Source of the DNA: a virus
Lineage: Duplodnaviria > Caudoviricetes
Direction: 5' to 3' (one strand)
DNA: 26,768 nt
IMG/VR virus record: IMGVR_UViG_3300011444_000021
Coordinates: 1 to 26,768 of that record
This document shows, piece by piece, positions 1-25,569 of the stretch (position 1 is its first letter; each line of letters begins with the position of its first letter). Both the position numbers and the translations under genes were made by a program. The notes beneath the pieces are model-generated. The model worked only from the letters and a program-made list of their open reading frames with translations, was not told the DNA's origin and ran no database searches.

Positions 1-453
1 ATAGGACAGCATTTCTTCCCACTTTCCATCTGTGACCATGTCGGAAGCGTGCTTTCCATTCGCGTAATCACGAACTTCCTTCGACAGGATGCGACCTTGG
101 AGATGTGAAACGGCATCCGCCAAGGACCTTCGATTGCAGAGATACGACGACATATTCGCCGTGCAATACCACTCGGCGGGTTGGACTCGGGGAATCAGCC
201 CGCGCTCTTCCGCTGCCGCCGTCACCATTGCGTCAAAGCGCTTGTTATGGCTGACTAGAGTTTGCCCTTCAATCGCGGCGAAGTTGAAATCACGCGGCGC
301 ACCGGCCCACGAATCTTCACCATCGCTCACCGCCAGCAGATAGGGGTCGAACCGGTCATCATGGAGGTAGCGCCATATACCAAGTTCCTTGATGCCGTAG
401 CCCTGCTTGGTGGCGTAGAAAGTTTCCCAATCATATCCGATTACTCGTTTCAT
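1..453 (-). CDS. Family A DNA polymerase, N-terminal 3'-5' exonuclease domain (runs off the window)
   Basis: Hand-translated and absent from the ORF track: MKRVIGYDWETFY...VSHNKRFDAM...EEMLSY, with ExoI DxET and ExoII HNxxFD motifs. The ATG at 453 overlaps the TGA of the upstream Mom-like gene (ATGA). Confidence 0.85.
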   Translation of the reverse strand, partial: MKRVIGYDWETFYATKQGYGIKELGIWRYLHDDRFDPYLLAVSDGEDSWAGAPRDFNFAAIEGQTLVSHNKRFDAMVTAAAEERGLIPRVQPAEWYCTANMSSYLCNRRSLADAVSHLQGRILSKEVRDYANGKHASDMVTDGKWEEMLSY

Positions 454-1109
454 AGATAATAGACAAAGCAATGTTTCGGGGGAAGCGGAACTTTTTCAAG
501 GAGACCTAACGCCAATTTTGCTCGGAGTTTTTTGACGAAGGGCTTAAAGTCTCCCTTATACTTCACCCTCAAGCTTCGAGAGTGATATACTTTCCCGGTT
601 TCTGTATCCCGATACCCCGAGTCAGGAGAGGAAACTCCCAAATACTTAAAATTCGACGCTTTGTAAATGGTTCCACAATGCCCGAATCGGGGGTCGGCAT
701 AGCTCACTACTATCTCGGTCAAGGGCAAAAGTTTTCTAATCTGACGAAGGGTGTATCCGATTACTTTGGATTCCGAATTTTTCGGAACGCGGTCAAGCAA
801 AACCAACCGGCGAAGTTCAATAACTTTTTCCTCGGAGCTACCAAATTTTCTCCACGCGGTAGTCGCCATTGGACCAAAAATCACTGCCCCCACTAGCTCG
901 TTATCCATCTCCACCTTGAAACATTGTCGTGTCGTAACTCCGTTGACCGAACGACTGTAATGATTTGTTTCTACAAACTCGCGTATCTCCAAGAGCGAGC
1001 ATGGCGAAATTTGGAGCGCGCGGGTCGGAGTTGCACCGCCATCTAATGTCTGGTTGACATTCATTTTCGTTAAACTACGCGCGCAGAAAAAAGTTACTTT
1101 AGGGTGCAA
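450..1109 (-). CDS. Mom-like GNAT-fold DNA adenine modification protein (start uncertain: TTG 1109 or ATG 1064)
   Basis: Mom-family motifs NHYS, GAVIFG, IELRRL, KNSESKVI and VVSYADPRFGHCGTIYKASNFKYLG. Confidence 0.85.
   Translation of the reverse strand: MHPKVTFFCARSLTKMNVNQTLDGGATPTRALQISPCSLLEIREFVETNHYSRSVNGVTTRQCFKVEMDNELVGAVIFGPMATTAWRKFGSSEEKVIELRRLVLLDRVPKNSESKVIGYTLRQIRKLLPLTEIVVSYADPRFGHCGTIYKASNFKYLGVSSPDSGYRDTETGKVYHSRSLRVKYKGDFKPFVKKLRAKLALGLLEKVPLPPKHCFVYYL
1012..1084 (-). tRNA. Atypical tRNA-Gly-like RNA (anticodon ACC) overlapping the 5' end of Mom-like gene 1
   Basis: GCGCGCG TA GTTT-AACGA-AAAT G AATGT-CA ACC AG-ACATT AGAT GGCGG-TGCAACT-CCGACC CGCGCGC T CCA: a 73-nt cloverleaf with U73 and encoded CCA. 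Confidence 0.8.
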
Positions 1110-1420
1110 CCAATCGTCGGATGACGCATGACCTTCCGATGAATGATGACGCGAGCGAGCATGTTCAACCGCTCCTCAGTTTTCTTGACTGCTTGACCCG
1201 TGATGAACCACGCCCCGTCGGAATAGGCCATATCGGACGTATCCGCGATGGCGAGTTGTCGAATAGAAGAGTCCAAGTCGGCTTCGATTTGCGTGAGGAA
1301 CTCTTCACTGACCCGGGTGAACTTCCCCGCGCGCTTTTCCGCGGAGACCTTGAGAGCATATCTCTTGACCGCGCTGCGGTTGATGATGCCCTGTGTTTTT
1401 GTTACGAGTTCAGTTTCCAT
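1094..1420 (-). CDS. Hypothetical protein, possible prokaryotic or phage histone-fold
   Basis: IINRSAVKRYAL...TRVSEEFLTQIEADL...RHPTIGCTLK resembles the alpha1, L1-RVS, alpha2 and L2-KTL pattern of minimal histone folds (by eye). Confidence 0.5.
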   Translation of the reverse strand: METELVTKTQGIINRSAVKRYALKVSAEKRAGKFTRVSEEFLTQIEADLDSSIRQLAIADTSDMAYSDGAWFITGQAVKKTEERLNMLARVIIHRKVMRHPTIGCTLK

Positions 1421-1644
1421 TGAAGCGCGCCTCGTTTTGTTCGGGAGTTGTGCCGCCTTGAGTCTCCCAAATTGGATATTGAATCTCCTCCGGCGCAGTG
1501 CCCGGAACCGTTACTGTATTTTCTGTCGTTTCGTTTTGCATAGAAAAGGTCAGGGCCGGAGGAGTTGAACCCCCGGACTCACCGGTCTGCCGGTGGTGAA
1601 AGACGGGTCCCCGCGCGTGGGGCTCTTTCTCCCTCATAAATTAT

Positions 1645-2097
1645 TTAACCGCGAGTCTCTCCCCCGAGCATAAAGCTCCAGTGGTGCCAACGACTCTTCC
1701 GGCGTATCCGAACCGAGACACAAAACGGTTGGTCGTTCCACCACCAGTCCGAGTTTGGAACCATCTGATATGCTCTCACACGAAGCGGCCATCTCGGGAT
1801 AAGTCTTTCCCCCGCCGGACAATCCGCGAAGTAAAGGTCGCATTCGTCCGCACCAAAGTAGAACACCCGTCGGTAAAGGAAATTTTTTCGGACCTCCGTT
1901 TTCTCCCGGATTATCTGACCGAGATACGCCGACATATCGTGTTGTCGATGGTCGAATTTACAACATTCGGGAAGTCGGTCGATTCCTAGAAAACTCATTA
2001 CACAATCCGTCTTGCCTTCGCGATTTAGAACCCGCGCGTCTCGTAACGTCACGAGTGACCGATTCCGCAGCACCGCGAGAATTTCCTCGTGGGTCAT
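1645..2097 (-). CDS. Hypothetical phage protein
   Basis: The ATG at 2097 overlaps the SprT-like stop (ATGA), so the ORF-track call was trimmed. Confidence 0.6.
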   Translation of the reverse strand: MTHEEILAVLRNRSLVTLRDARVLNREGKTDCVMSFLGIDRLPECCKFDHRQHDMSAYLGQIIREKTEVRKNFLYRRVFYFGADECDLYFADCPAGERLIPRWPLRVRAYQMVPNSDWWWNDQPFCVSVRIRRKSRWHHWSFMLGGETRG

Positions 2098-2693
2098 TCG
2101 CCCTCCATTTCCTCGGGAATGTCCATCGTCAGCGGTTTCTTGTCCGTCGGACAAATCGGCGGTCCGAAGTCCGCCCACTTCTTCGCGAGGCGAACCGTGT
2201 AACCGCAGCAATCGCACTCGGCTTTGTGCATCCGCGTCGTCTGGACCTTGCGCTCCTTGATGACCATCAGTTCGCTGTGTGGGTAAGGCCCAAGTTCAAT
2301 CAGCATACGCCCGAGACGCTCAACCATCGCGGCGTCCGCCGTCGTCGCCGTGGGCTTGCCTTCCAGACCGACCAGCTTCATCGCCCGCTTGAACTTGGGG
2401 CCGTGTTTCGCTTTGCAGCCGATGGACGCGTGGACCATCTCGTGGATGAGTGTAGCGAGCACGCCTTGCGTCGTCGCGGCGTCGCAGAGCATTGGTGAGA
2501 TGAAAAGCTGCGGCTTGCCATCAGCAGCGCAGAGACCGTCCCAGCACTCGCCAATGACTTTTTTCTTGGTGGCGAGCCCGCCCTTGGACGGGAACCCGCA
2601 TGACACCCGGAGTTCCGGGACAGCAAGACCAGCACCTCGGAAAAGAGGCGTGAGCTTTGCAACCGCATCGGTCAACCATTGTTCTCGGTTCAT
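2094..2693 (-). CDS. SprT-like zinc metalloprotease with C-terminal Zn ribbon
   Basis: TLIHEMVHA...HGPKF (HExxH plus a third His), and CDCCGY...CPTD. ATGA-coupled start at 2693 (MNREQW). Confidence 0.8.
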   Translation of the reverse strand: MNREQWLTDAVAKLTPLFRGAGLAVPELRVSCGFPSKGGLATKKKVIGECWDGLCAADGKPQLFISPMLCDAATTQGVLATLIHEMVHASIGCKAKHGPKFKRAMKLVGLEGKPTATTADAAMVERLGRMLIELGPYPHSELMVIKERKVQTTRMHKAECDCCGYTVRLAKKWADFGPPICPTDKKPLTMDIPEEMEGE

Positions 2694-3100
2694 ACGACCC
2701 CCCATTTATTCTCGGCAATCAATTGCACGCGCTTTTCGTTGGCAATTTTGATGGCTTGCGTCAGGTCGGTTCCATATTCGTGAAAATAGTAGCACCCCTG
2801 CTCATCGCGGTTTCCCATCGGGTAAGGGCGAACCATCTCGGGTTGCTTGTGCAGGCCAAAGTGAGTATCAGTCTGTGACCGGCGGACGTTCCCCGCGCGG
2901 TCCATGACGATGAAAAAATAGTTGTAGTGCCCCGGGGCACCTGATTGATTGTCCAATATCCATTCTTCAACGTAGCACGGATTGTCATCCGCGAATGTGA
3001 CCGCCGCGTCGGCTTTTTCCCGAGTCGTAAAGACCCCAATGTTTCGACGGTCAGAGTATTCACCCTGCGTCACAACGTAAACTTTCGTAGGTTCGTTCAT
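2690..3100 (-). CDS. Hypothetical phage protein
   Basis: The N-terminus KVYVVTQGEYSD...IGVFTTREKA is a common phage small-protein pattern. The ATG at 3100 lies just below a promoter. Confidence 0.65.
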   Translation of the reverse strand: MNEPTKVYVVTQGEYSDRRNIGVFTTREKADAAVTFADDNPCYVEEWILDNQSGAPGHYNYFFIVMDRAGNVRRSQTDTHFGLHKQPEMVRPYPMGNRDEQGCYYFHEYGTDLTQAIKIANEKRVQLIAENKWGVV

Positions 3101-3106
3101 ACAATC

Positions 3107-3134
3107 AATATAGCACAAGGGTTTCAAATGTCAA
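3107..3134 (-). promoter_or_regulatory. Sigma70-like promoter, probably giving a leaderless mRNA
   Basis: TTGACA-N16-TATATT with TGn extension, 6 nt above the ATG at 3100. Confidence 0.6.
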
Positions 3135-3316
3135 ATCAGCGAAAAAGCCGAAATCGGTTTACCCGGAGCGTCCAACGAAAAAATTTGACTTCTAGCGTAT
3201 CCCACAAGCAGAGCCCCGTGTCGAGGGGGGTGATATACTCCATGCCGAACGCTGCGCCGCTGGTGGCTTTGGTGACGTGCGTCTGCCATCGCACTTCGGC
3301 AAATTTGGGCATCATA

Positions 3317-3350
3317 GAAAAGAGGGGCGGAGGTTGTTAAGCTCCGCCCC
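3317..3350 (-). terminator. Rho-independent terminator
   Basis: GGGGCGGAG-loop-CTCCGCCCC followed by TCTTTTC, just after the 3365 stop. Confidence 0.75.
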
Positions 3351-3364
3351 GTGTAAACAGTCGG

Positions 3365-4264
3365 TTACTTCAGGCCGATGACTTCGTAAACGAACGCCTG
3401 AAACGCGGCGCTGTTCTTCAGTCCGGGGCGAACCACCGGGACGGCGGCAAAGTTCTCACCGAACTTCTCCATCTTCGAGGTGAGACCCCAGCTTTGCTTT
3501 GCGTAGCCGGAGCGCAGGTGCCCAATCTTGCGGGCGGTGAACATCGCCTTCGCAGCGTGCGTGTAGGCGGTGCCCTTCATGCTCCACAGCACGAGCGCGT
3601 AGAACTTGCCTTCGCACTCATACGGGAACTCGATGTGGTCTTCGTCGGCGAGCTTCGCGGGCTTCTCCACGAGACACAGGGCGGTAGCAAGGCGTTGAAA
3701 ATACCTTAATGCCTTGCCCGTTCCCGCTTTCGCGGCCTTCTCACTGGCGTCCCACTCTTTGTAATCGAGCGTGCCGCCATGCTTGACGACTTCCTGTTCA
3801 GTGTGGGCGAGGATACCCATCACGCCGCCGACAACCTTCTCGGCGAACTGGGTTTTCTTGAACCCGAGGACCGTGATGTTCAGCGGCGGGTCGCCAGCCA
3901 CACCAGCTTTCGCTGGAGTGTGAATGACGAGTGCCTGCTTCAACACGATTTCGCCCGGGTTGAAGATTTCGGACAAATCGCCGACCTTCTGGACGATGTT
4001 GATACGCGGGAGGATGATGTCCTCGAATCCGATGTTCTGGTCATCGAACGCAATGGGCGAGTCCACGACAGCGGGGACTTCCGGGGCGTTGACTACCACA
4101 TTCTGCGGCGTCGCCGGAATCGCAATTGCCGGGACTGGAACGTCCACGTCAATCACGACGGCGTTGGCAACCGCCGGGGCGACGGTCGTATGGCTTTCCA
4201 CCGTGACGCCGTCCACGGGCGTCGGAGTTTCACTGACAGTTTTTTCAAACGACAACTTACTCAT
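3365..4264 (-). CDS. Phage replication protein, putative ssDNA-binding or annealing protein
   Basis: DIILPRINIVQ...PGEIVL motif after a low-complexity P/V/A N-terminus. Lies next to the DUF2800-like nuclease and is followed by a terminator. Confidence 0.5.
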   Translation of the reverse strand: MSKLSFEKTVSETPTPVDGVTVESHTTVAPAVANAVVIDVDVPVPAIAIPATPQNVVVNAPEVPAVVDSPIAFDDQNIGFEDIILPRINIVQKVGDLSEIFNPGEIVLKQALVIHTPAKAGVAGDPPLNITVLGFKKTQFAEKVVGGVMGILAHTEQEVVKHGGTLDYKEWDASEKAAKAGTGKALRYFQRLATALCLVEKPAKLADEDHIEFPYECEGKFYALVLWSMKGTAYTHAAKAMFTARKIGHLRSGYAKQSWGLTSKMEKFGENFAAVPVVRPGLKNSAAFQAFVYEVIGLK

Positions 4265-4291
4265 GTTTTTTCTTTCTGTTTTGGGTTTTGT

Positions 4292-5554
4292 TTACTTAGG
4301 GGCGATTTTGCCCTTGTCTTGCTTCTTGCTTTGGCGCAGGAACGCAAAAGGATTACCGAGTTCGACGATATTTGCATCCTGCAATCGTTGTCCGAACTCT
4401 TCGACGGTGCGCTCCTTCTGACCACGCGGAGCGACGGCGGAAATCAAATCTTCAATAGGCCCGAGCGGGATATCGAACAGCTTTTCGACTTCCTCGTGCA
4501 TCCCGGGCGGAAGAAACTCCTTCGCCATGTCCGCAAACTTGCGCGCGTCGAGAAGCTTCCGCTTCTGCATCGTAACGAGCGTGTAGCCCTCGGGGATGAA
4601 CTCCATGTTTTCGATGGTCTTCTCCGTCGCCTGCCGACGAAACGCTTCGGCCCAGACCTTGACCACGTCCGCGAGCCGAAGACCCATGTCCACGTCAACG
4701 GGGTTACTCAAGGTCGTTGGATTCACATTTTCCGGGATGGCGAGGGGCTTGTATTTCTGCCCCACCTTGAGTGCGAGCGCGGCGACTGCCGGACACTTTC
4801 CAACCAGCGCGCAGAAAAGACAGGTGCCGACGTTCGGACGAGCGGACGAGAAGTCATTCGAGTTAGCTGCGGCGGCAATTGAGCGTCCCACTACAACGCG
4901 AATACGGAGATAAAATTCCGAACAGTCCGTCAGGTCAAACGTATGCTCCGACATCTCGTCGATATGCGGTTGGATGAAGGATACTTGGCACTTGCGAAGC
5001 CCCGGGAACATCTTCTTCAGGCCCAGCATGTAGGCGATGCCTTGAAGATTGTCCTCAGCAGAAGTCACCGCGTTTCGTCCAAATTTGTAATCGACGATGT
5101 CCGCCTCGGTTTCATCCGCGGAGATAACCGCGAAGTCAAGGAAGCCCGCCGTGGTGCCCTCGAATACTCTGTGCTCAGTCTTTCCTTGACGGAATCCGGG
5201 AGAAATTTGTCCATCCTCGGTGACGATGTCGAATCGTTCAATGCTCTTTACTGTGATAACGAGGACTTCTTCATCAATCGGGAGATAGACTTCCGTGAGA
5301 ATTTTTCCTCCGGGATAGCTGGAGGCGCGCTCTTCACAGAAAATCATGCAGTTCGCCACCGCGGCGGCACGGTCATCAGAGAGCCGGTTGTCGTCCGCTC
5401 CGCGCTCGACCGCGTCGTGCTGGATGCTACCGAAGACCGCGGCTTCGTTTGTGGAATTGCGATTCTGAAACTTGGGGCAGGCTTCGCGAGATTGGAGTGA
5501 AGATGGAGAAAATGGGTGATGCACCCGCTCAGTGTTAGGCACTTCGTTATTCAT
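4292..5554 (-). CDS. DUF2800/Cas4-like PD-(D/E)XK exonuclease
   Basis: HHPFSPSS...CP, GFLDF...IVDYKFG, NLQGIAY and CLFC...CP motifs. Confidence 0.8.
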   Translation of the reverse strand: MNNEVPNTERVHHPFSPSSLQSREACPKFQNRNSTNEAAVFGSIQHDAVERGADDNRLSDDRAAAVANCMIFCEERASSYPGGKILTEVYLPIDEEVLVITVKSIERFDIVTEDGQISPGFRQGKTEHRVFEGTTAGFLDFAVISADETEADIVDYKFGRNAVTSAEDNLQGIAYMLGLKKMFPGLRKCQVSFIQPHIDEMSEHTFDLTDCSEFYLRIRVVVGRSIAAAANSNDFSSARPNVGTCLFCALVGKCPAVAALALKVGQKYKPLAIPENVNPTTLSNPVDVDMGLRLADVVKVWAEAFRRQATEKTIENMEFIPEGYTLVTMQKRKLLDARKFADMAKEFLPPGMHEEVEKLFDIPLGPIEDLISAVAPRGQKERTVEEFGQRLQDANIVELGNPFAFLRQSKKQDKGKIAPK

Positions 5555-5564
5555 AATCGTGAAG

Positions 5565-5594
5565 AAGAAATGCGAGGAGAGTTGTTTTTGTCAA
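5565..5594 (-). promoter_or_regulatory. Repeated phage promoter motif, copy 1
   Basis: TTGACA-N16-CATTTCTT, 10 nt above ATG 5554. Overlapped by a perfect 13-bp inverted repeat (5572-5584/5592-5604). Confidence 0.6.
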
Positions 5595-5610
5595 CTCTCC
5601 TCGCCTGCAA

Positions 5611-5883
5611 TCAATTCTCCTCGGCGTTCTTACGATGAATGGCACGCGCCTCCGCCCACTTGTTTGACGTGCGGGGAGACTCCACGAGACGGGAAGAGGT
5701 CTCCGACTCGGGCACATAAGTCTTGGTCACGCGAAGTGCCACAACCCCGCGCTTGCTTTCGGCGAGCGACTGAGCGCGTTCCGCGCATAGGTCCGCCCAT
5801 TGGTTCGTTTCGGGACGACCCCGCGACCCCCAGAGAGCCGCCATGATTTCCCGACCGCCGCATCCGACTTTTCCGCGCTTCAT
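5611..5883 (-). CDS. Hypothetical protein
   Basis: ATG 1 nt after the upstream stop, in operon orientation. Confidence 0.45.
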   Translation of the reverse strand: MKRGKVGCGGREIMAALWGSRGRPETNQWADLCAERAQSLAESKRGVVALRVTKTYVPESETSSRLVESPRTSNKWAEARAIHRKNAEEN

Positions 5884-5884
5884 A

Positions 5885-6064
5885 TTAGTAGTTTCCTTTC
5901 ACTCGCTTCATCATTTTCTTTCCAGTGGGGTGCCACCCGTGGTGCACGGCACGCAACAGTCGGGCTTGGCTCTCCGCCTTCGCCTTCGTGGTGTGCTTCG
6001 CCTTCACGCCGCCCGGCGTGGAGACTCGGTATCCACCCTTCACTTTGGTTATTTTCTCAGGCAT
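5885..6064 (-). CDS. Small basic hypothetical protein (59 aa)
   Basis: Hand-translated MPEKITKVKGGYRVSTPGGVKAKHTTKAKAESQARLLRAV..., with a GGAGGTGA Shine-Dalgarno at 6071-6078. Confidence 0.7.
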   Translation of the reverse strand: MPEKITKVKGGYRVSTPGGVKAKHTTKAKAESQARLLRAVHHGWHPTGKKMMKRVKGNY

Positions 6065-6070
6065 AGTATC

Positions 6071-6700
6071 TCACCTCCCTTCGTCTGTCAAATCGAACTG
6101 AAAAACATGTTTCGGAGGGCAGACAATAATCTCAATTTCCTTCTCCGGAAATATTTTCTTTAGTCCGCTCCCCGAACATCCGTAAGCATCAAAAACACTT
6201 TTCGGATGAAATTCTTTTCCATCGATAACGATGCGGCGTGTCCCGTGACCAACCTCCATTCCCAAATATCGGAAATTGCTGGCCCGATAAATCCCGCCGC
6301 GATGCCCGAATCTCGGGTCGGAAAAACTTACGACTCTGTGATGTCCAGTTTGTTTCTTCAACCATCTCAGCGCCCATCCGATGAACTTGGATTCTGAGTT
6401 CTTTGAGCACTCATCGAGCATCGCGAGCCGGACTAACTCAAGGTCTGCCCCATACGCTTTTTCAACTTTCGGGAGCGACGGTTTGCGGAACACCAGCGCC
6501 CCAACCACTCGGGACTTCGACTCCGCGACAAAGTAGAATTTTCCCGGAGGACAACTCTGAGAGTAGTGAACTCGGGAAATAAATTTCCTCGGCTCTATCG
6601 AATCCGAGGGACGAAAGTGGAGCGCGGAGGTCGGAATTGCACCGCCATCAGAGGGCTGGATGCCCCCGGTTTTCGTTAAACTATCCGCGCAAAGATTCAT
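6071..6700 (-). CDS. Second Mom-like GNAT-fold DNA adenine modification protein
   Basis: VHYS, GALVF, LELVRL, KNSESKFIG and VVSFSDPRFGHRGGIYRASNFRYLG. The ATG overlaps the helicase TGA. Confidence 0.85.
   Translation of the reverse strand: MNLCADSLTKTGGIQPSDGGAIPTSALHFRPSDSIEPRKFISRVHYSQSCPPGKFYFVAESKSRVVGALVFRKPSLPKVEKAYGADLELVRLAMLDECSKNSESKFIGWALRWLKKQTGHHRVVSFSDPRFGHRGGIYRASNFRYLGMEVGHGTRRIVIDGKEFHPKSVFDAYGCSGSGLKKIFPEKEIEIIVCPPKHVFQFDLTDEGR
6618..6690 (-). tRNA. Atypical tRNA-Gly-like RNA (anticodon TCC) inside Mom-like gene 2
   Basis: GCGCGGA TA GTTT-AACGA-AAAC C GGGGG-CA TCC AG-CCCTC TGAT GGCGG-TGCAATT-CCGACC TCCGCGC T CCA: 73 nt, with stems that covary with the 1012-1084 copy. Confidence 0.82.
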
Positions 6701-8229
6701 TGGTTTTCTTCGACTTCAGTAATCGCATCGAGTGAGCGAGAAGTCAAGGGCAGGTTCGCCGCCCACAAGTCGCCATCATTCAGCGCGTCGATTTGATTGA
6801 GCTTCGCAGAAAGTTGCTTGTGCGCCTTCACCTCTACGGTATTCGCCGCGAGGATGACCCGGTAAATGGATTTGCTCTTGCCGCCCGCGCGGGGAAATCG
6901 TCCGCAGACCTGACGAAAAGCGGACGCACTCGACGGCAAGGATACTGCGCCCCCGCGCGGAAACTTCCCGGTGATGTCGTGGAGCGAGATGGAAACTCCC
7001 CCGGCGAGATTGTTAAGCAGGATTCCCCGCTCGCGGTCCTCTTGGATGTCGTCGATAAAACCCTGCCGCTCCCGCTGCCCCTTTGCCCCGCGCTGGGTTC
7101 CGTCGATACGGCATTTCCACTTGAGCCGCTTTTGCAGCGCGTCGAGAGTCGCGGTGAAGTTGACAAAAATTCCCACGGTGCGCCCGGCTTCCTGCATGGA
7201 GATAGCGACTTCCTCGAATATGGGAACCTTCAGCAATTCGATTTCCTGCTTGGCGTGAAGGATACGAGTCAGGGGAAGCTCCAAGGACCGGTCTCCCAAC
7301 TTGCGCTCATTAAGTTCGCGGATAGCGTCATCCATTTCCGCGTAGAGTTCGTCGATGCGCCCGCTCTCTTTGAGGTCGTAGAGTTCCGCGGTGATATGGC
7401 AGGCAGGAAACGCATCTCCGAGGTCCGCAATCCGTATCCGCGTGCCTCGCGACGGGAAAATTTCCGAGTGTAGCTGCGCCATTTTTTGACGCCGAGACTC
7501 TTCACTCCCCGTGAATTGCAATCCGCCAAAAGGTGATTTGCGACAACCGAGTCGGTTAGCCCAGCGGTAGAACCCGGGCGCATCCGAGTCCTTTCGGTCA
7601 ACCAGATAGTGCAACCCCAAGACATAGCCCAACGCCCGGAAATTGAGCGGAGAGTCTGCCACCGTCGCAGAAAGCGCCAGCACTGGAATGCCCGCAATTT
7701 TCGCACCGACGAGCATGTCCGAATTAAGCGAATCGATTGCTCCGCAACGGTGAATCTCATCCTGAATGAGTAGCCGTATGTTTCGGTTCCAAAAGAATTT
7801 TCCATAGTTGTGAAGTTTGGTTTTAATGACGGCGCAGTGAATTCCCGCGGGATGGTGCGGACACGGGAACGGTTTCACCAAGTCAATCTTCAACTGGCAC
7901 TCGCTGCATTCGAGAAACTCGTCGCGAGGTCCGTCGGGAGGCATGTGCTCCCACGTCCCGAACGGAGTCCGGCCCGTGCGAATCATTTCGTAATTTAGCG
8001 CGTCAAACTCCGTGCCCATAATTTCTCCGACGCGCTTCCACGCGGAAATCGAAATTTGAGGACACACAACCAAAGTAGGGACGTTTAGTTCACGAGCGAC
8101 CGCCACTGCCACAAAAGTTTTTCCAGTGCCCATATCAGACCCATCAATCGCCGAGCGACCCGACTGTAAAATCTTCAGGAGATGCTCCGCCGCCGGTTTT
8201 TGGTATTCCAGAAGTCCCGCGGTGTTCAT
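6697..8229 (-). CDS. Superfamily II (SNF2-like) helicase with Cys/His insert
   Basis: Walker A DMGTGKT, QDEIH and LSAT motifs, a C-terminal QVCGRFPR motif VI variant, and a CSEC...CPHH...HC insert. Confidence 0.88.
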   Translation of the reverse strand: MNTAGLLEYQKPAAEHLLKILQSGRSAIDGSDMGTGKTFVAVAVARELNVPTLVVCPQISISAWKRVGEIMGTEFDALNYEMIRTGRTPFGTWEHMPPDGPRDEFLECSECQLKIDLVKPFPCPHHPAGIHCAVIKTKLHNYGKFFWNRNIRLLIQDEIHRCGAIDSLNSDMLVGAKIAGIPVLALSATVADSPLNFRALGYVLGLHYLVDRKDSDAPGFYRWANRLGCRKSPFGGLQFTGSEESRRQKMAQLHSEIFPSRGTRIRIADLGDAFPACHITAELYDLKESGRIDELYAEMDDAIRELNERKLGDRSLELPLTRILHAKQEIELLKVPIFEEVAISMQEAGRTVGIFVNFTATLDALQKRLKWKCRIDGTQRGAKGQRERQGFIDDIQEDRERGILLNNLAGGVSISLHDITGKFPRGGAVSLPSSASAFRQVCGRFPRAGGKSKSIYRVILAANTVEVKAHKQLSAKLNQIDALNDGDLWAANLPLTSRSLDAITEVEENQ

Positions 8230-8705
8230 GGGAAATTCAAAGCTTCCCGCTCGAAGCCTCGGGCCAACGCTTCCGCATCGTATATTCTCGCGGCGGTTTC
8301 TTCAGAAGAGTGGTATCCGAGGAAAAGTTTTTTACTGCCCGGGAGACCAATTCTCGCTGCCCACTTACCGCGAAACCACGAGACCCCGCGATATTGGCTA
8401 GACGTGCCCGACCGTTTTCGCTGGAAAGCCCGGGCGTTCCCCCGCTGGTCCCGGACTCTCAAATTCTCTCGACGATTGTCTAACCCGTTTCCGTTTTTGT
8501 GGTCTCCGCGTGAGCCCGCAGGCGCATCTAAAACTTCTCTATGAAGACGTTTTCGGTTATTTCCTCGTCCGCGTTCGGCATACCACCGGCCCCGGTAATT
8601 GGCGGCGCTCCATTTAACCCGACCGACCTTTTCCATGTCGTCGAAGTCGATGATTACGACCTTCCCTTGCGAGAGCGGCAAAAATACAATCGCGTCAGTC
8701 CTCAT
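8226..8705 (-). CDS. HNH-AP2 homing endonuclease
   Basis: RLHREVL...DHKNGNGLDNRRENLR (HNH) plus SQYRGVSW...KWAARI...EETAARIYD...NFP (AP2). Start trimmed to ATG 8705. Confidence 0.88.
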   Translation of the reverse strand: MRTDAIVFLPLSQGKVVIIDFDDMEKVGRVKWSAANYRGRWYAERGRGNNRKRLHREVLDAPAGSRGDHKNGNGLDNRRENLRVRDQRGNARAFQRKRSGTSSQYRGVSWFRGKWAARIGLPGSKKLFLGYHSSEETAARIYDAEALARGFEREALNFP

Positions 8706-8913
8706 GAGCTGCCCATCGCTTGTCCGGGCCGAGACCTTCGCCCAACAGACGTTCAACTGCCTCGCGGCAATCCGCCGAGTTGTGGAGGATGATTGGACCG
8801 TGCGGAAATACAAATCCCAAATCGGGGTCCACGTAATCGACACGCGGACCGCACCAACAATTGGCGCTATGCCGATGCGGGGCTTCGTCATTGAGTGGGA
8901 CGACGTTGACCAT
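8695..8913 (-). CDS. Small His/Cys hypothetical phage protein
   Basis: MVNVVPLNDEAPH...CWCGP...ILHNSADCRE. Confidence 0.6.
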   Translation of the reverse strand: MVNVVPLNDEAPHRHSANCWCGPRVDYVDPDLGFVFPHGPIILHNSADCREAVERLLGEGLGPDKRWAAHED

Positions 8914-8914
8914 C

Positions 8915-9205
8915 TCAATTCCCCGGAGCGTCGTTGCAGTTCGCGATATGCGGACTGGTGATGTCACCCTCGCACGCCGGGCAACGAAAAACTTCTTCCC
9001 TCTTCCACCATATCGGGTCGAACACCGAATCAGGAACCGTCTGCGCGATTCGCGGCATCGCGTATCCTTTCCACTTCCGGCGCATCCATCGCATCCGTCG
9101 CTTGCGACTCCACCCTTTGACCGCCGATGGAATCGGAAGCCCATTGAGAAAGTGGACCGAGTAAGTCGCATTTACCCACGCGGGATTGATTTCAGGCTTT
9201 CTCAT
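8915..9205 (-). CDS. Hypothetical protein with CxxC
   Basis: ATGA-coupled start at 9205 and a CPAC motif. Confidence 0.5.
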   Translation of the reverse strand: MRKPEINPAWVNATYSVHFLNGLPIPSAVKGWSRKRRMRWMRRKWKGYAMPRIAQTVPDSVFDPIWWKREEVFRCPACEGDITSPHIANCNDAPGN

Positions 9206-9471
9206 GCAAAGAAAAATCCTTCTTCCACGGAGCATGACCGTATCACGAGTATGCCCCGGTAATAGAAATGAGCGACTCGCTTCCGTTGAAACTCAAGGGA
9301 CACCTGAGACTGTTCGCACGACATGAAGTCCGCAATACTCGTGGTAACTTCCGCGAAGAGTTGGTCATAGTCATGTGCGCCCACCATCACGACCCCCGGG
9401 GAACTTACCGGGAATCCATTGGTCGTGGCGACATTGAGCCAGTAGTGGTTGAACTTCTCCTTGGCGTTCAT
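9202..9471 (-). CDS. Hypothetical protein
   Basis: Tightly packed operon ORF. Confidence 0.55.
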   Translation of the reverse strand: MNAKEKFNHYWLNVATTNGFPVSSPGVVMVGAHDYDQLFAEVTTSIADFMSCEQSQVSLEFQRKRVAHFYYRGILVIRSCSVEEGFFFA

Positions 9472-10133
9472 CAGAAGTAAATCAGGTGAACCGTGATGCT
9501 ACCCTCAAAGATTGGCCCGGTCAGTTCGCAGAACTGATGCGTCAACGGTTCCAATAATAGCCAATGTCCTCCCTTAAGCCTCATCACAACCATCGCGTGA
9601 TATACCGGGAAGTCCTCGGGACGCAGCCCGCCCATACGCAGCCCGTCTATCGGCCCGTCAATCCGAACGCCGATGAAACCAATGGCCAGCGCGGCGGGAT
9701 ACTCGCGGTATTCGACCAACGCCTCTTTACGAAGTAATACCATCAGTTCCTGCGCGTTGTCGTCGCAGTCGTAGGCTTCGGGCACGTAAACATTCTCCAG
9801 CTTGCGGAACGCGCGCTTGAGCATCAGCTTCGCGGTCTGTTCGGTGGGCGAGATGTAGAGCATGTCCACCGTGAACGCAGGCGTCCAAAGCTGAGGACAG
9901 ATAGGACCCAGTTCGGTAGCAAAGCTAATTTCATCCGCGAGGTCTGCCGATTCGGTTTGTCCGTCGGGCTTCAGAGTGCGGCCAACATTGATAGTCGTCG
10001 CCGGGCGGTTGAATACCGCCGCCGGTTTGTCACCGAAAAATTTCGTCGGTGCGTCACTGAGAAAAAACGATTCGACGGCAATGAGGAACGAGAGAACCGC
10101 CACGATGGCGATTTGTAATTTTGGACTACGCAT
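9471..10133 (-). CDS. Exported or anchored papain/transglutaminase-like cysteine hydrolase
   Basis: N-terminal hydrophobic helix, and YDCDDNA...HAMVV...LLEP as a candidate Cys-His-Glu triad. Confidence 0.6.
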   Translation of the reverse strand: MRSPKLQIAIVAVLSFLIAVESFFLSDAPTKFFGDKPAAVFNRPATTINVGRTLKPDGQTESADLADEISFATELGPICPQLWTPAFTVDMLYISPTEQTAKLMLKRAFRKLENVYVPEAYDCDDNAQELMVLLRKEALVEYREYPAALAIGFIGVRIDGPIDGLRMGGLRPEDFPVYHAMVVMRLKGGHWLLLEPLTHQFCELTGPIFEGSITVHLIYF

Positions 10134-17181: not shown

Positions 17182-17359
17182 GCGGCTCGCACCTTGGCGG
17201 ACCCCTTTTTCAAATGGTGGGGAGCTTATTATTGATAATACCTATTATGCGTGTGAGAGATAAATAATAGAAAAGAGGATATATAAGGAAGGACGGTCTG
17301 AACTATCCTCAATAACTTCCCCAGCGTTTGAAAAAGGGGTCCGCCAAGGTGCGAGCCGC
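17182..17359. repeat. Perfect 33-bp inverted repeat flanking an AT-rich spacer
   Basis: 17182-17214 GCGGCTCGCACCTTGGCGGACCCCTTTTTCAAA is the exact reverse complement of 17327-17359. Confidence 0.95.
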
Positions 17360-17568: not shown

Positions 17569-18194
17569 AGATTGACAAGTCCAAGCTGGACGTTGCCCAG
17601 ATTTTTCTTACGTTCATGTCGCTCATTGGCGACGTAGATAAGACCGCGGCGGCACTCGACCTGAGTCCGCATATCGTTGCGGGACTGGCCGAGCAGGAAG
17701 GCTGGCTTGAGAAGGTGCGTCGCCTCTCCGTGATGTCGAAGAGTGGTAAGCAAGGTGACTATGAGCGCGCCCAGAACCGCGCGTTGAACTTTGTTCAGGC
17801 TCACCGTATGCGGATGACTGTTGATGCCCTGTTGCGTGCCTTCGACGGACTTAGCCCTGAAGAGATTGTTGAAAAGCTTTCCACTTGCGATAAGAACGGC
17901 CATTACCACATCAGCGCGCGGTTTCTTGCAGACCTTGCTGCTGCCTCAGAGAAGATTCAGGCGCTTTCGTATGCCGCCTTGGGAGACTCTGTCAAGGAGC
18001 GCGTGGAGCGCGCGGAAGCAGCAGATGGCGAGATGACACCCGACCAGTTGCACGCGGCAGTTATTGCCGCATTGAACGCTCCTCATGCACCCGCCGTTGC
18101 CTCGCAAGTGCTTGAGGCGGAAGTGAGACTTATTGTCGCACCGAGCGAAAATCTCCAGCCGCCCGCTGTCGAGCCCGGAGTGAGTAATGCGTGA
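17565..18194 (+). CDS. Probable terminase small subunit (N-terminal HTH, helical body)
   Basis: HTH-like GDVDKTAAALDLSPHIVAGLAEQEGW. First large gene of the arm leading to TerL, followed by a repeat-rich noncoding block. Confidence 0.5.
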   Translation: MKIDKSKLDVAQIFLTFMSLIGDVDKTAAALDLSPHIVAGLAEQEGWLEKVRRLSVMSKSGKQGDYERAQNRALNFVQAHRMRMTVDALLRAFDGLSPEEIVEKLSTCDKNGHYHISARFLADLAAASEKIQALSYAALGDSVKERVERAEAADGEMTPDQLHAAVIAALNAPHAPAVASQVLEAEVRLIVAPSENLQPPAVEPGVSNA

Positions 18195-18280
18195 AAATCA
18201 CGCGTTAACGTTAATGTAACTGCGTGAAAACCACGCATTGATGCGTGAAAATCACGCATTGATGCGTGAAAATCACGCAT
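18187..18280. repeat. Four palindromic GCGTGAAAA(T/C)CACGC units
   Basis: Copies start at about 18187, 18220, 18241 and 18262, and the last three have a 21-bp period. Confidence 0.92.
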
Positions 18281-18549
18281 AGTCTCGATGGCCTTGTGGC
18301 ATAGAGACTTAGGTGTAAATAATCTTACCTATCTCTTGACAGTCAAATGAGACACTCAGTCTGGACACTTGGACAGTGCGACATTTTGGCGCAGTGGGAT
18401 GAGAGACGGGGGACAATCGGGCGGTGCGCCCTCGCTCGGTGATTCGCCAGCAAAACTATTTTTTCTCATCGGAGACCCGGCAATGTTTACATAGCACATA
18501 TGCAAAAAGCCGATTTGACCGTTCCTAGAAATGCGATACCCTGACCACC

Positions 18550-22073: not shown

Positions 22074-22149
22074 GGCGGGATGGCGCAGTGTTCAGCGCGC
22101 TTGGCTCATAACCAAGAGGTCGGAGGTTAAAATCCTTCTCCCGCTCCCA
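22074..22149 (+). tRNA. tRNA with CAU anticodon (Met or Ile2), atypical
   Basis: GGCGGGA TG GCGC-AGTGTTCA-GCGC G CTTGG-CT CAT AA-CCAAG AGGTC GGAGG-TTAAAAT-CCTTC TCCCGCT C CCA, 76 nt. Confidence 0.92.
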
Positions 22150-23141: not shown

Positions 23142-23927
23142 TTGAAAACGGCACTTCTCTGGAATACTTATCTCGGGGACCTTCACTGGTTCCGATTTAG
23201 CGCCGCGAGCTTTACCAAGTTCGCGCGCGGACGTTTCCACTCCGTTGCTTGTCTCGTTCCCACTCGGCACCGGGATAATTTTCGGGAGACCTGCGAGCAT
23301 CACGGCATCACCCTTCTCGACCGCCCGGACTGGCCGGACAAATCCTTCAACTGGCACCAGATGTGGCAGTGTCAGGCCGACATGCTTTTTCCTGACGCGG
23401 ACGCCATCTGGCACATGGACGCAGACACGGTGTTTACTGCGCCGTGTGGACCGGAGGACTGGATGTCGGATGGAAAACTTCTCTGCCCCTACGTGAATTT
23501 CGACTATCTTCTCGCGATGGAGGGCCGATTTGGAAACTGGATGTGGAAGTCCCGGGTTGATGATGCAATCGGTGGCGATGTGAAATGGGCGACCATGACG
23601 GGGCATCCGCATTGCCATTACCGCAACGTCTATGCGCGCACGCGCGAGGAAGTTGCCCGGCACACGCACTCATGGGAGAAATACATTCACCTTCAGCAAA
23701 ACTTGCACCCCCAAGGATTTTGTGAGTTTGAGACTCTCGGCGCGATTGCCCAGCGACACTATGCCAACGACTACGTCTGGCGTGATTTACAGAAGGAGGT
23801 CCATCCGTCCATCGGACGAGTGGCTCAATGCTATTCCCACGGTGGACTCGACGCCATTCATCCGTTCCCTCCTCCGCTCGGCGGAATTCAGACTCCTCGA
23901 CAACTTTTTCAACGGCTCGGTCTGTGA
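23142..23927 (+). CDS. GT-A fold glycosyltransferase-like protein (DUF6492-like), paralog 1
   Basis: QMWQCQAD...IWHMDADTVF (DxD), FCEFETLG and SHGGLD. Confidence 0.65.
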   Translation: MKTALLWNTYLGDLHWFRFSAASFTKFARGRFHSVACLVPTRHRDNFRETCEHHGITLLDRPDWPDKSFNWHQMWQCQADMLFPDADAIWHMDADTVFTAPCGPEDWMSDGKLLCPYVNFDYLLAMEGRFGNWMWKSRVDDAIGGDVKWATMTGHPHCHYRNVYARTREEVARHTHSWEKYIHLQQNLHPQGFCEFETLGAIAQRHYANDYVWRDLQKEVHPSIGRVAQCYSHGGLDAIHPFPPPLGGIQTPRQLFQRLGL

Positions 23928-24709
23928 AAACCGCACTTCTTTGGAACACGTTTGGAAAAGACCTTGAGTGGTTCCGCTACTCCGCGGCCAGCTACGCGAA
24001 GTTCGCGCGCGGGTGGAATGACGCGGTGTGTTTGGTCCCCACCAGTGACGCCATACCGTTCATTCCCGTCTGTGAGAAATACGGGATTCGTCTTATTTAC
24101 GCGCCTGCGTGGGTGGACAAGGGTTTCAACTGGCACCAGATGCAACAATGCTGCGCGGACATGCACCTCCCGAACGCGGACGCTATCTGGCACATGGACG
24201 CCGACTGTGTTTTCACCTCGTTCTGCACCCCCGAATGCTGGAAGGAAAACGGAAAATTGGTGTGCTCCTATTTTCAGTTTGAGGATTTGCTCGGTGTGAA
24301 CGAGTGGGGACCCGGAATGTGGAAATCTCGCGTGGACGTTGCAATCGGCGGCGACGTAAAGTGGTCCACGATGACGGGGCACCCGCACTGCCACTATCGG
24401 GAGGTCTATGAGGTAACACGCGCGCTCGTGGCCGACAAACACCCCGAGGGATTCGCGGATTACGTCTTCTCGTGCGAGAATTCCTATCCGCAGGGATTCT
24501 GTGAGTTCGAGACACTCGGCGCGACCGCGCAGATGCTATTCAAGTCCGACTACCACTGGAATCGTCTGGAAACCAAAGCCACGCATCCGTCTGCCGGACT
24601 TGTCGCGGAAGGGTGGAGCCACGGCGGGCTCGACCACGTTGTCAGCGATAAGCTCGACGGAGTCAGCACCGCCCGAGAATTTTTTCAGAAAGCCGGAATT
24701 ACCCTATGA
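23924..24709 (+). CDS. GT-A fold glycosyltransferase-like protein, paralog 2
   Basis: The GTG start overlaps the paralog 1 TGA. Collinear with paralog 1 (KTALLWNT, HMDADCVF, FCEFETLG, SHGGLD). Confidence 0.65.
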   Translation: MKTALLWNTFGKDLEWFRYSAASYAKFARGWNDAVCLVPTSDAIPFIPVCEKYGIRLIYAPAWVDKGFNWHQMQQCCADMHLPNADAIWHMDADCVFTSFCTPECWKENGKLVCSYFQFEDLLGVNEWGPGMWKSRVDVAIGGDVKWSTMTGHPHCHYREVYEVTRALVADKHPEGFADYVFSCENSYPQGFCEFETLGATAQMLFKSDYHWNRLETKATHPSAGLVAEGWSHGGLDHVVSDKLDGVSTAREFFQKAGITL

Positions 24710-25569
24710 ACCATCAAGTCCTAATCTCGTCCTACAAAAAAGATTTTATCTGGCTCGGCCCATGTCTGGCCAGCTTGCGAAAATTCTCGAAGGGATTTTT
24801 GCCCCCGGTCGTCTCCGTTGCGCCCGACGATTATCTCGGCGCGTGTGAAGTAACCCGAAAGTATTACCCCGAGGTGAATGTCGTGGTGGATTGTGATACG
24901 CGCGGGCTGTTAAAAGGAAATCTCCGCGCCCAGCTTTCGATGATGCATTCGGACGTTCTCTGTCCGAGGGCAGACTACATTTGGCTAGTCGGTAGCGATT
25001 GCATCGTCCACTCGGAGTTTTCCCCGGAGCCGTTTTTTCACGACGGAAAACCAGTGATGCTCACCAATAGCTACGAGCATCTTCTCAAGTATGTTCCGCG
25101 CGCGTGCATAATTCCGTGGCAGGATGGAGTCGAACAGGCGCTCGGATTTCGACCGACGCACGAATATATGCGCCGTCTTCCGCTCATGTATCACCGAAGG
25201 CTCTTCAAGGATACGCGCGAAGCCGTCGAAGCTCGTCATGCGTGCGCGTTCACCGATTACGTTTACGACATTCACCACACGGTTTACAACAGCGACCGGA
25301 CAGAGCGGACCGAGCGGTCGGATGCGTCGAACTTCTCCGAGAGCAATCTTCTCGGCGCGTATGCTGACCGATTCTTCCCCGGCGCATTTCATTGGGTATG
25401 CTTGGACTACCAGCCGAATACAATTCCGAATCCGATGATTCAGTTTTGGAGCCACGGAGGACTCGACATGGAATGTGATGTTCGCTTTGACTACTCGGGC
25501 GGGAACACGTTCGGCAAAACGCCGCGCGCGGTCATCACGGAAATTTTAGGAGCCAATGCTCTCGACTGA
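24706..25569 (+). CDS. GT-A-like protein, divergent paralog 3
   Basis: SYKKDFIWL, QLSMMHSD...IWLVGSDCIV (DxD replaced by GSD), FSESNLLG and WSHGGLD. Confidence 0.6.
   Translation: MNHQVLISSYKKDFIWLGPCLASLRKFSKGFLPPVVSVAPDDYLGACEVTRKYYPEVNVVVDCDTRGLLKGNLRAQLSMMHSDVLCPRADYIWLVGSDCIVHSEFSPEPFFHDGKPVMLTNSYEHLLKYVPRACIIPWQDGVEQALGFRPTHEYMRRLPLMYHRRLFKDTREAVEARHACAFTDYVYDIHHTVYNSDRTERTERSDASNFSESNLLGAYADRFFPGAFHWVCLDYQPNTIPNPMIQFWSHGGLDMECDVRFDYSGGNTFGKTPRAVITEILGANALD

Follow-up and report, generated by a model that had tools for sequence, protein, structure and literature searches.

What is a tRNA-Gly-like RNA doing inside the gene of an enzyme that modifies DNA? The question is raised by a 26,768-nt viral sequence (IMG/VR record IMGVR_UViG_3300011444_000021, here called the window), a phage contig with helicase, exonuclease, RNA ligase and resolvase genes, in which two such elements each lie in frame within the 5' end of a Mom-family ORF. 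Mom of phage Mu is reported to move glycine from Gly-tRNAGly to adenine N6 and to accept all three E. coli tRNAGly isoacceptors (PMC13219725, accessible portion). The best reading of the sequences analyzed here, to which we give a probability of roughly 65%, is that the elements are processed, glycylated and non-decoding RNAs that would donate glycine to Mom.

Two tRNA-Gly-like elements within mom genes

Both elements are recognized by sequence, fold and covariance-model score. Element B (6618..6690, minus strand, 73 nt) forms a cloverleaf with a 7-bp acceptor stem, a 4-bp D-stem with a 5-nt loop, a 4-nt variable loop and a T-stem with a single bulged A (position 6631), followed by U73 and an encoded CCA. 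Its anticodon loop reads C32 A33 U34 C35 C36 A37 G38, with the UCC anticodon at 6658-6660. Element A (1012..1084, minus strand, 73 nt) is 78% identical and has an ACC anticodon (1052-1054), a bulged A (1025) and U73-CCA. Canonical elongator tRNAs carry U33, G18G19, U54-U55-C56 and a continuous 5-bp T-stem; the two elements depart from canonical tRNA-Gly in having A33, no GG, G55 and the bulge. Both nevertheless show the cloverleaf of RF00005 (four stems, 7-bp acceptor, CCA) and the bacterial glycine identity set recognized by GlyRS, namely U73, G1-C72, C2-G71, C35 and C36 (PMC9976931, accessible portion).

A covariance model built from 32 homologues, with the window excluded, scores element A at 70.3 bits and element B at 68.2 bits. 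When ARAGORN and Rfam were run on the window neither element was called, and the only hit was an unrelated tRNA-Met; an earlier note on this DNA had anticipated a low or pseudogene score from ARAGORN. By minimum energy, copy B folds precisely into the cloverleaf (-29.1 kcal/mol, z -1.8) and copy A into the same cloverleaf with the D-stem open (z -2.1), so that folding energy by itself is only modest evidence. More telling is the comparison of the copies, for which the earlier note had reported compensatory changes, and these are borne out: 12 of the 16 differences fall in stems and touch seven pairs, five with both bases altered and two with a single change that passes through G-U, and none of the 22 pairs is broken in either copy. 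Copy B has one G-U in the anticodon stem, and the D-stem of copy A begins with G10-U25. A 14-nt D-arm stretch common to both is most likely shared by descent, and the copies are therefore not independent witnesses.

The Mom-family ORFs themselves, a context that the earlier note does not mention, are 38% identical to each other. ORF B (6071..6700, minus strand) matches Pfam PF25680 (E 2e-26), PHROG 1384 and PDB 8bv8 (E 1e-6), and ORF A (450..1109, minus strand) matches PF25680 (E 2e-38) and 8bv8 (E 1e-16); the PF25680 scores of ORFs A and B are 132 and 93 bits against a cut-off of 27.1. The positions of Mu R111, S124, D149, R151 and Y159 are kept in both according to 8bv8 alignments read by eye, with Mu numbering deduced from the 8bv8 S124A chain and the accessible portion of PMC13219725. 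The ATG of mom B lies 9 nt upstream of element B, its frame spans the entire element, and no ATG, GTG or TTG occurs between the CCA and the HY motif. The frame of mom A is likewise open across element A; its start is uncertain, the candidates being a TTG at 1109, an ATG within the element and a TTG past it. The stop of the helicase gene (6697..8229, minus strand; from the ORF list, PHROG 62) overlaps the start of mom B as ATGA, which suggests putative translational coupling into element B. Scans for promoters and terminators over window positions 1-9500 gave counts at chance level.

Elsewhere in the window, a long inverted repeat with 56-nt arms that are 88% complementary lies near the minus-to-plus gene switch (17182-17359), where an Rfam match to MIR810 falls far under the gathering score. 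An intergenic stretch (18188-18283) contains four direct repeats, each of 21 nt and near-palindromic, which may be operator or origin sites. At 22074-22149 lies a tRNA-Met(CAU) whose T-loop is atypical and whose D-loop lacks GG. Three consecutive ORFs at 23142-25569, at least two of them clearly paralogous, had no match in Pfam, PHROG or NCBIfam.

A family of bulged elements tied to mom

We searched with RNA patterns defined without reference to protein, counting distinct sequences with relatives included. These patterns match about 600-800 viral contig stretches. For the pattern based on the T-arm and 3' end, an estimated 610 IMG/VR stretches match, and a Mom-like ORF adjoins the element in 75 of the 80 full-flank loci fetched: 30 elements form the in-frame N-terminus and 33 the in-frame C-terminus, while nine lie downstream, one upstream and two convergent. 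Four of the remaining five loci run into the contig end on the upstream side. Of 49 aligned domains, 48 were confirmed as Mom by Pfam. The exception, L057, is one of the convergent loci counted among the 75 and has a GNAT without a Pfam Mom match. A second, peptide-style pattern, in which third codon positions were left free, found 109 distinct matches, 83 of them mom-linked (67/77 full-flank loci beside mom), and a third with positions 73-76 free gave 70/76. By contrast, a control pattern minus the bulge retrieved ordinary phage tRNA-Gly, of which 2/51 lie beside mom, both being short D-arm forms. ARAGORN called 21 of 60 family loci, nine as tRNA-Gly; standard annotation overlooks most of the family.

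Structural selection and the T-stem bulge

Sequences chosen from the pattern matches were sorted by eye into two gap-free 76-nt alignments, one of the class with a 7-nt anticodon loop (A2, n = 32) and one of the class with an 8-nt loop (A3, n = 33), the latter loop occurring in many family members. In A2, 95% of cells are paired and 15 of 23 pairs show double changes; the corresponding values for A3 are 93% and 16 of 22. None of 500 shuffles reached the observed values, and slid controls gave 34-52%. All four stems covary. Most T-stem pairs are fixed by the search patterns and hence uninformative, but pair 51:63 covaries where it was left free, which assigns the bulge to the 3' strand. Of the 63 Mom-linked genome matches in which the bulged position was free, 59 have A there, and the bulge is the sole near-invariant deviation in the family.

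The idea that these are decayed tRNAs is rejected on the stem covariation of A2 and A3. This agrees with the earlier note, which had argued for structural selection rather than decay: four stems covary and the GlyRS determinants are kept, while decoding features are relaxed. A pair between positions 32 and 38, which it had also proposed, is real (30 of 32 A2 sequences, covarying) but is no family mark, as U32-A38 occurs in 24 of 51 ordinary phage tRNA-Gly as well.

Glycine identity is kept and decoding features are relaxed

Among the matches to the third pattern, U73 is kept in 108/111 and, where they were free, C35-C36 in 93/104. CCA is encoded in 80/111 while U73 stays, and the combination of a kept U73 with an optional CCA fits a trimmed tRNA finished by CCA addition. 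To follow further single positions we pooled the 142 Mom-linked elements from the three patterns, each of which fixes part of the sequence. No clean preference for U was seen at position -1 (56/142), so cleavage by RNase P would have no sequence support other than the fold. Three elements (L473, L510 and L530) have A73 in place of U73, which might match hosts with another type of GlyRS.

Positions that matter for decoding behave differently. Position 33 is U in 71, G in 32, A in 24 and C in 15 of the 142, compared with U33 in 45/51 controls; position 55 is G in 85 and U in 57, compared with 3/51 and 48/51. A34 is found in 48/142 family members vs. 6/51 controls, and G34 in none of the 142. Short forms (at most 70 nt, with a reduced D-arm) number 33/142, and 58 of the 106 longer forms still have GG in the D region. 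The deviations that the earlier note listed are thus present in both window copies as described, but most of them are not family traits: the 5-nt D-loop, A33 and G55 vary across the 142 elements and cannot be taken as selected. They represent released constraint, and A and B probably share them through descent.

These counts also bear on whether the elements still decode, as a defense-resistant supplementary tRNA-Gly, or a toxin decoy, that refills the pool drained by Mom and evades host nucleases by its odd features. Near-canonical members exist, including those that ARAGORN called, and a toxin that targets tRNAGly, FaRel2, has been described (PMC11245113, accessible portion). We nonetheless regard such a role as quite improbable, given that half of the elements lack U33, a third have A34, none has G34, 33 are shortened and have a reduced D-arm, and ordinary phage tRNA-Gly is not tied to mom.

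In the T-stem, the window pairs G49-C65, G50-C64 and C51-G63 sum to +0.1 kcal/mol (from the table in the accessible part of PMC3239215, which has no bulge term). The tight G49-U65/G51-C63 type is stronger by only about 1 kcal/mol; it is the T-stem of staphylococcal proteinogenic species (PMC12256121, accessible portion). G51-C63 occurs in 3 of the 142 Mom-linked elements. A likeness to the weak staphylococcal T-stem, suggested earlier, does not extend to the paired bases, which are not of that type. Judging from its position, the bulge may instead be what blocks EF-Tu.

One sequence, two constraints

Most of the Mom-linked elements (106/142) lie in frame within an ORF, and 36/142 are out of frame or non-coding. 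In the N-terminal class, the length is 3n+1 in 48/49, and the Mom frame contains a stop in 0/49, vs. 45 and 39 for the other two frames; elements on the 3' side and outside ORFs have a stop in the Mom frame in 14/30. Between the CCA and the HY motif, 11 of the 49 N-terminal elements have a common start codon and 33 have none, the other five being left out of this count because the motif search matched too early. Translation of the 5' class usually starts a few codons upstream of the element. The short D-loop in the window may therefore reflect the keeping of the frame rather than avoidance of the ribosome.

Could the resemblance to a tRNA arm be one of appearance alone, produced by a conserved peptide motif (GGxxPTxxLQ) at the termini of Mom? 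The N- and C-terminal classes do use the same reading frame. The motif, however, leaves unexplained why free third codon positions are fixed or covarying: among the 83 mom-linked matches to the peptide-style pattern, C35 is present in 83/83 although it is a free third codon position, and the other free positions give C as the third base of Thr in 83/83, C72 in 83/83 and C74 in 81/83. With synonymous sites fixed and 36 copies out of frame or non-coding, we rejected this explanation, whose probability we regard as close to nil.

An RNA that acts in cis deserves more weight. A tRNA mimic in the mom mRNA might be bound or cut by GlyRS, RNase P or Mom and so tune Mom synthesis to the glycyl-tRNA supply, with no free charged RNA. 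The large in-frame share, the open Mom frame of the 5' class with its starts just upstream, and the presence of a translational regulator of mom in Mu (Com, from the record annotation) all fit such a mimic, and for in-ORF copies the donor reading has the difficulty that release would destroy or truncate the mRNA. Yet elements also occur 3' of mom and outside ORFs; free-standing copies exist, as do tandem (L411, L214 and L107) and antisense (L131, L310 and L323) ones, and the kept U73 with optional CCA fits end maturation. We consider regulation in cis unlikely as the whole explanation; it can coexist with a donor role.

On a tree of 189 Mom domains, the 5', 3' or absent state of the element needs eight changes, whereas shuffles need at least 76, and presence or absence needs six. 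Nine of 39 pairs of elements at least 90% identical sit on Mom domains less than 40% identical. Element A and mom A form a module (443..1093, minus strand); one related contig with the same synteny lacks the whole block and has 300 different letters at the joint 442-1094. Among the 20 mom B homologues listed of 23 found, a peptide trace of the element remains in the two closest and is missing from the other 18. The near-identical elements on divergent domains and the missing module, together with the position of some mom-less copies near transposases, would suit a DNA recombination or attachment site that derives from a tRNA-Gly gene and shuffles mom domains among phages. A DNA site, on the other hand, needs neither a conserved NCC anticodon nor changes in the 5' half that compensate for those in the 3' half, and we think it very unlikely.

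A putative glycyl carrier for Mom

The preferred reading remains that of a glycine donor. The free-standing, tandem and antisense copies fit a diffusible RNA, and together with the optional CCA they favor a free matured RNA over a purely cis-acting element, a decoder or decoy, or a DNA site. The element would be cut out of its transcript by RNase P and 3' trimming, and the released RNA charged by the host glycyl-tRNA synthetase. The charged element would then hand its glycine to Mom for adenine modification to 6-NcmdA, which would disguise the phage DNA, with the bulge weakening its use by EF-Tu or the ribosome so that it stays out of translation, and with Mom using it preferentially. The location of the RNA within the ORF would mean that one transcript yields either enzyme or carrier, balancing the two. 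In its fullest form, the proposal is of a private, non-decoding glycyl carrier lodged in the reading frame of its own enzyme in hundreds of phages, in which one transcript gives Mom or its co-substrate, processing sets the ratio, the bulge hides the carrier from EF-Tu, and enzyme and tRNA pass together from phage to phage as a self-contained module for DNA hypermodification. We offer this fuller version tentatively, at slightly less than even odds.

ORFs A and B belong to the same family as Mu Mom (PF25680, 8bv8) with the catalytic positions kept, and the donor in Mu is Gly-tRNAGly, as proposed here. Mu differs in using host isoacceptors with no such RNA near mom, whereas in the window the RNA is within mom. 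The main text of PMC13219725, as far as accessible, contains neither "tRNA-like" nor "phage-encoded tRNA" and reports no phage-encoded donor.

The nearest functional parallel may be the staphylococcal non-proteinogenic tRNAGly species (NP1, NP2 and NEW), which serve Fem transferases. According to the accessible portions of PMC12256121, PMC3239215 and PMC9976931, these keep glycine identity, as does our family, and are tied to a GNAT-fold enzyme that uses Gly-tRNA off the ribosome. Neither they nor elements A and B have G49-U65 and G51-C63, in the definition of PMC12256121; A and B have G49-C65 and C51-G63 instead. The staphylococcal species have a UCC anticodon, lie in a chromosomal tRNA cluster, are glycylated in vivo, bind EF-Tu weakly and supply Fem ligases for peptidoglycan. 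The present family, in contrast, is phage-borne, has UCC, ACC or CCC anticodons and a D-arm that can shrink, carries a bulge between positions 63 and 64 rather than merely weak pairs, and usually overlaps the ORF of its own enzyme, with DNA adenine as the proposed acceptor. By analogy, it would work like the staphylococcal group yet stand outside it.

Ordinary phage tRNA-Gly shares the acceptor identity set and the 4-nt variable loop with the family, but mostly has U33 and U55, lacks the bulge and is almost never found beside mom. The canonical D-arm of some members points to an origin from tRNA-Gly. Non-canonical cloverleaves that standard finders miss, some with a T-stem bulge, were also described by Mukai et al. 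(PMC5389517, accessible portion), among them allo-tRNA, a selC* tRNACys with an A51a bulge, and G-1 tRNA1, which is charged but untranslated and so a precedent for a charged tRNA outside translation. Those tRNAs have 8/4 or 9/3 branches, with the bulge in the 5' strand, and are not linked to a DNA-modifying enzyme. The family, elements A and B included, has a 7/5 branch with the bulge on the 3' strand and is not of the allo-tRNA or selC* type.

In the openly accessible literature we found no description of a mom-linked family of bulged tRNA-Gly-like RNAs, and none appears in the accessible portions of PMC10690425, PMC5389517, PMC7609411, PMC7824862 and PMC11231383. That the glycine of Mom comes from a charged tRNA is a recent finding, and the enzyme was taken to draw on host tRNAGly, for which it would compete with translation. 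If the proposal is right, a conserved phage-made carrier would be how phages escape that competition, structural work and assays on Mom would gain a natural substrate, and the T-stem bulge would be a second natural means of excluding a charged tRNA from the ribosome. It is in any case unusual for a tRNA-like RNA within an ORF of a bacterial virus to be constrained at once by its structure and by the protein it encodes.

Distribution of the element

In viruses the element predicts mom, and mom does not need the element. When mom loci were collected protein-first, no element was found within 3 kb in any of 53. At one of these loci, a weak tRNA-Gly of more canonical form lies at a distance of 1.1 kb. 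Loci of this kind, and Mu, indicate that the element is dispensable for many Moms. A protein-first search with mom B gave nothing in viral contigs, and in metagenomes only the window's own record (L415). Our estimate of how often mom genes have the RNA draws on the 53 close-word loci and eight cultured-phage regions, of which one was positive while Mu and six others had no element.

Mom genes in L029-L046, which lack the element, share another long hairpin with a conserved loop region about 30-150 nt upstream, possibly a regulatory element. Two other loci (L009 and L016) contain several clustered Mom-family ORFs.

Among GTDB genomes, 30 of 80 full-flank matches are without mom; some of these are phage-like or truncated, and others apparently chromosomal (Acidobacteria, Rhodobacteraceae). 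The loci L293, L297, L328 (2467-2542 region), L298, L302, L306 and L308 have bulged tRNA-Gly-like genes whose D-arms are near-canonical and which have no mom close by. The mom-less copies of Acidobacteria are flanked by a Kelch-repeat gene and a SpoIIE phosphatase gene, and those of Rhodobacteraceae/Alphaproteobacteria lie near transposases and NYN genes; such copies may serve another Gly-tRNA-dependent enzyme. In a further locus without mom (L303, 1918-3003, minus strand) the element overlaps the end of a C5 cytosine methylase ORF.

The positive cultured phage is Psychrobacter phage vB_PmaS_Y8A (OQ059336). Searches with blastn against cultured phages gave weak matches (E 0.6 or worse), of which this one proved real by covariance model. 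It has two unannotated copies with CCC anticodons, which begin 7 nt past the stop of a Mom-like ORF; the accessible portion of the paper describing the phage reports no tRNA genes (PMC10434257). With two copies in a cultured phage, the idea of a carrier for Mom is directly testable.
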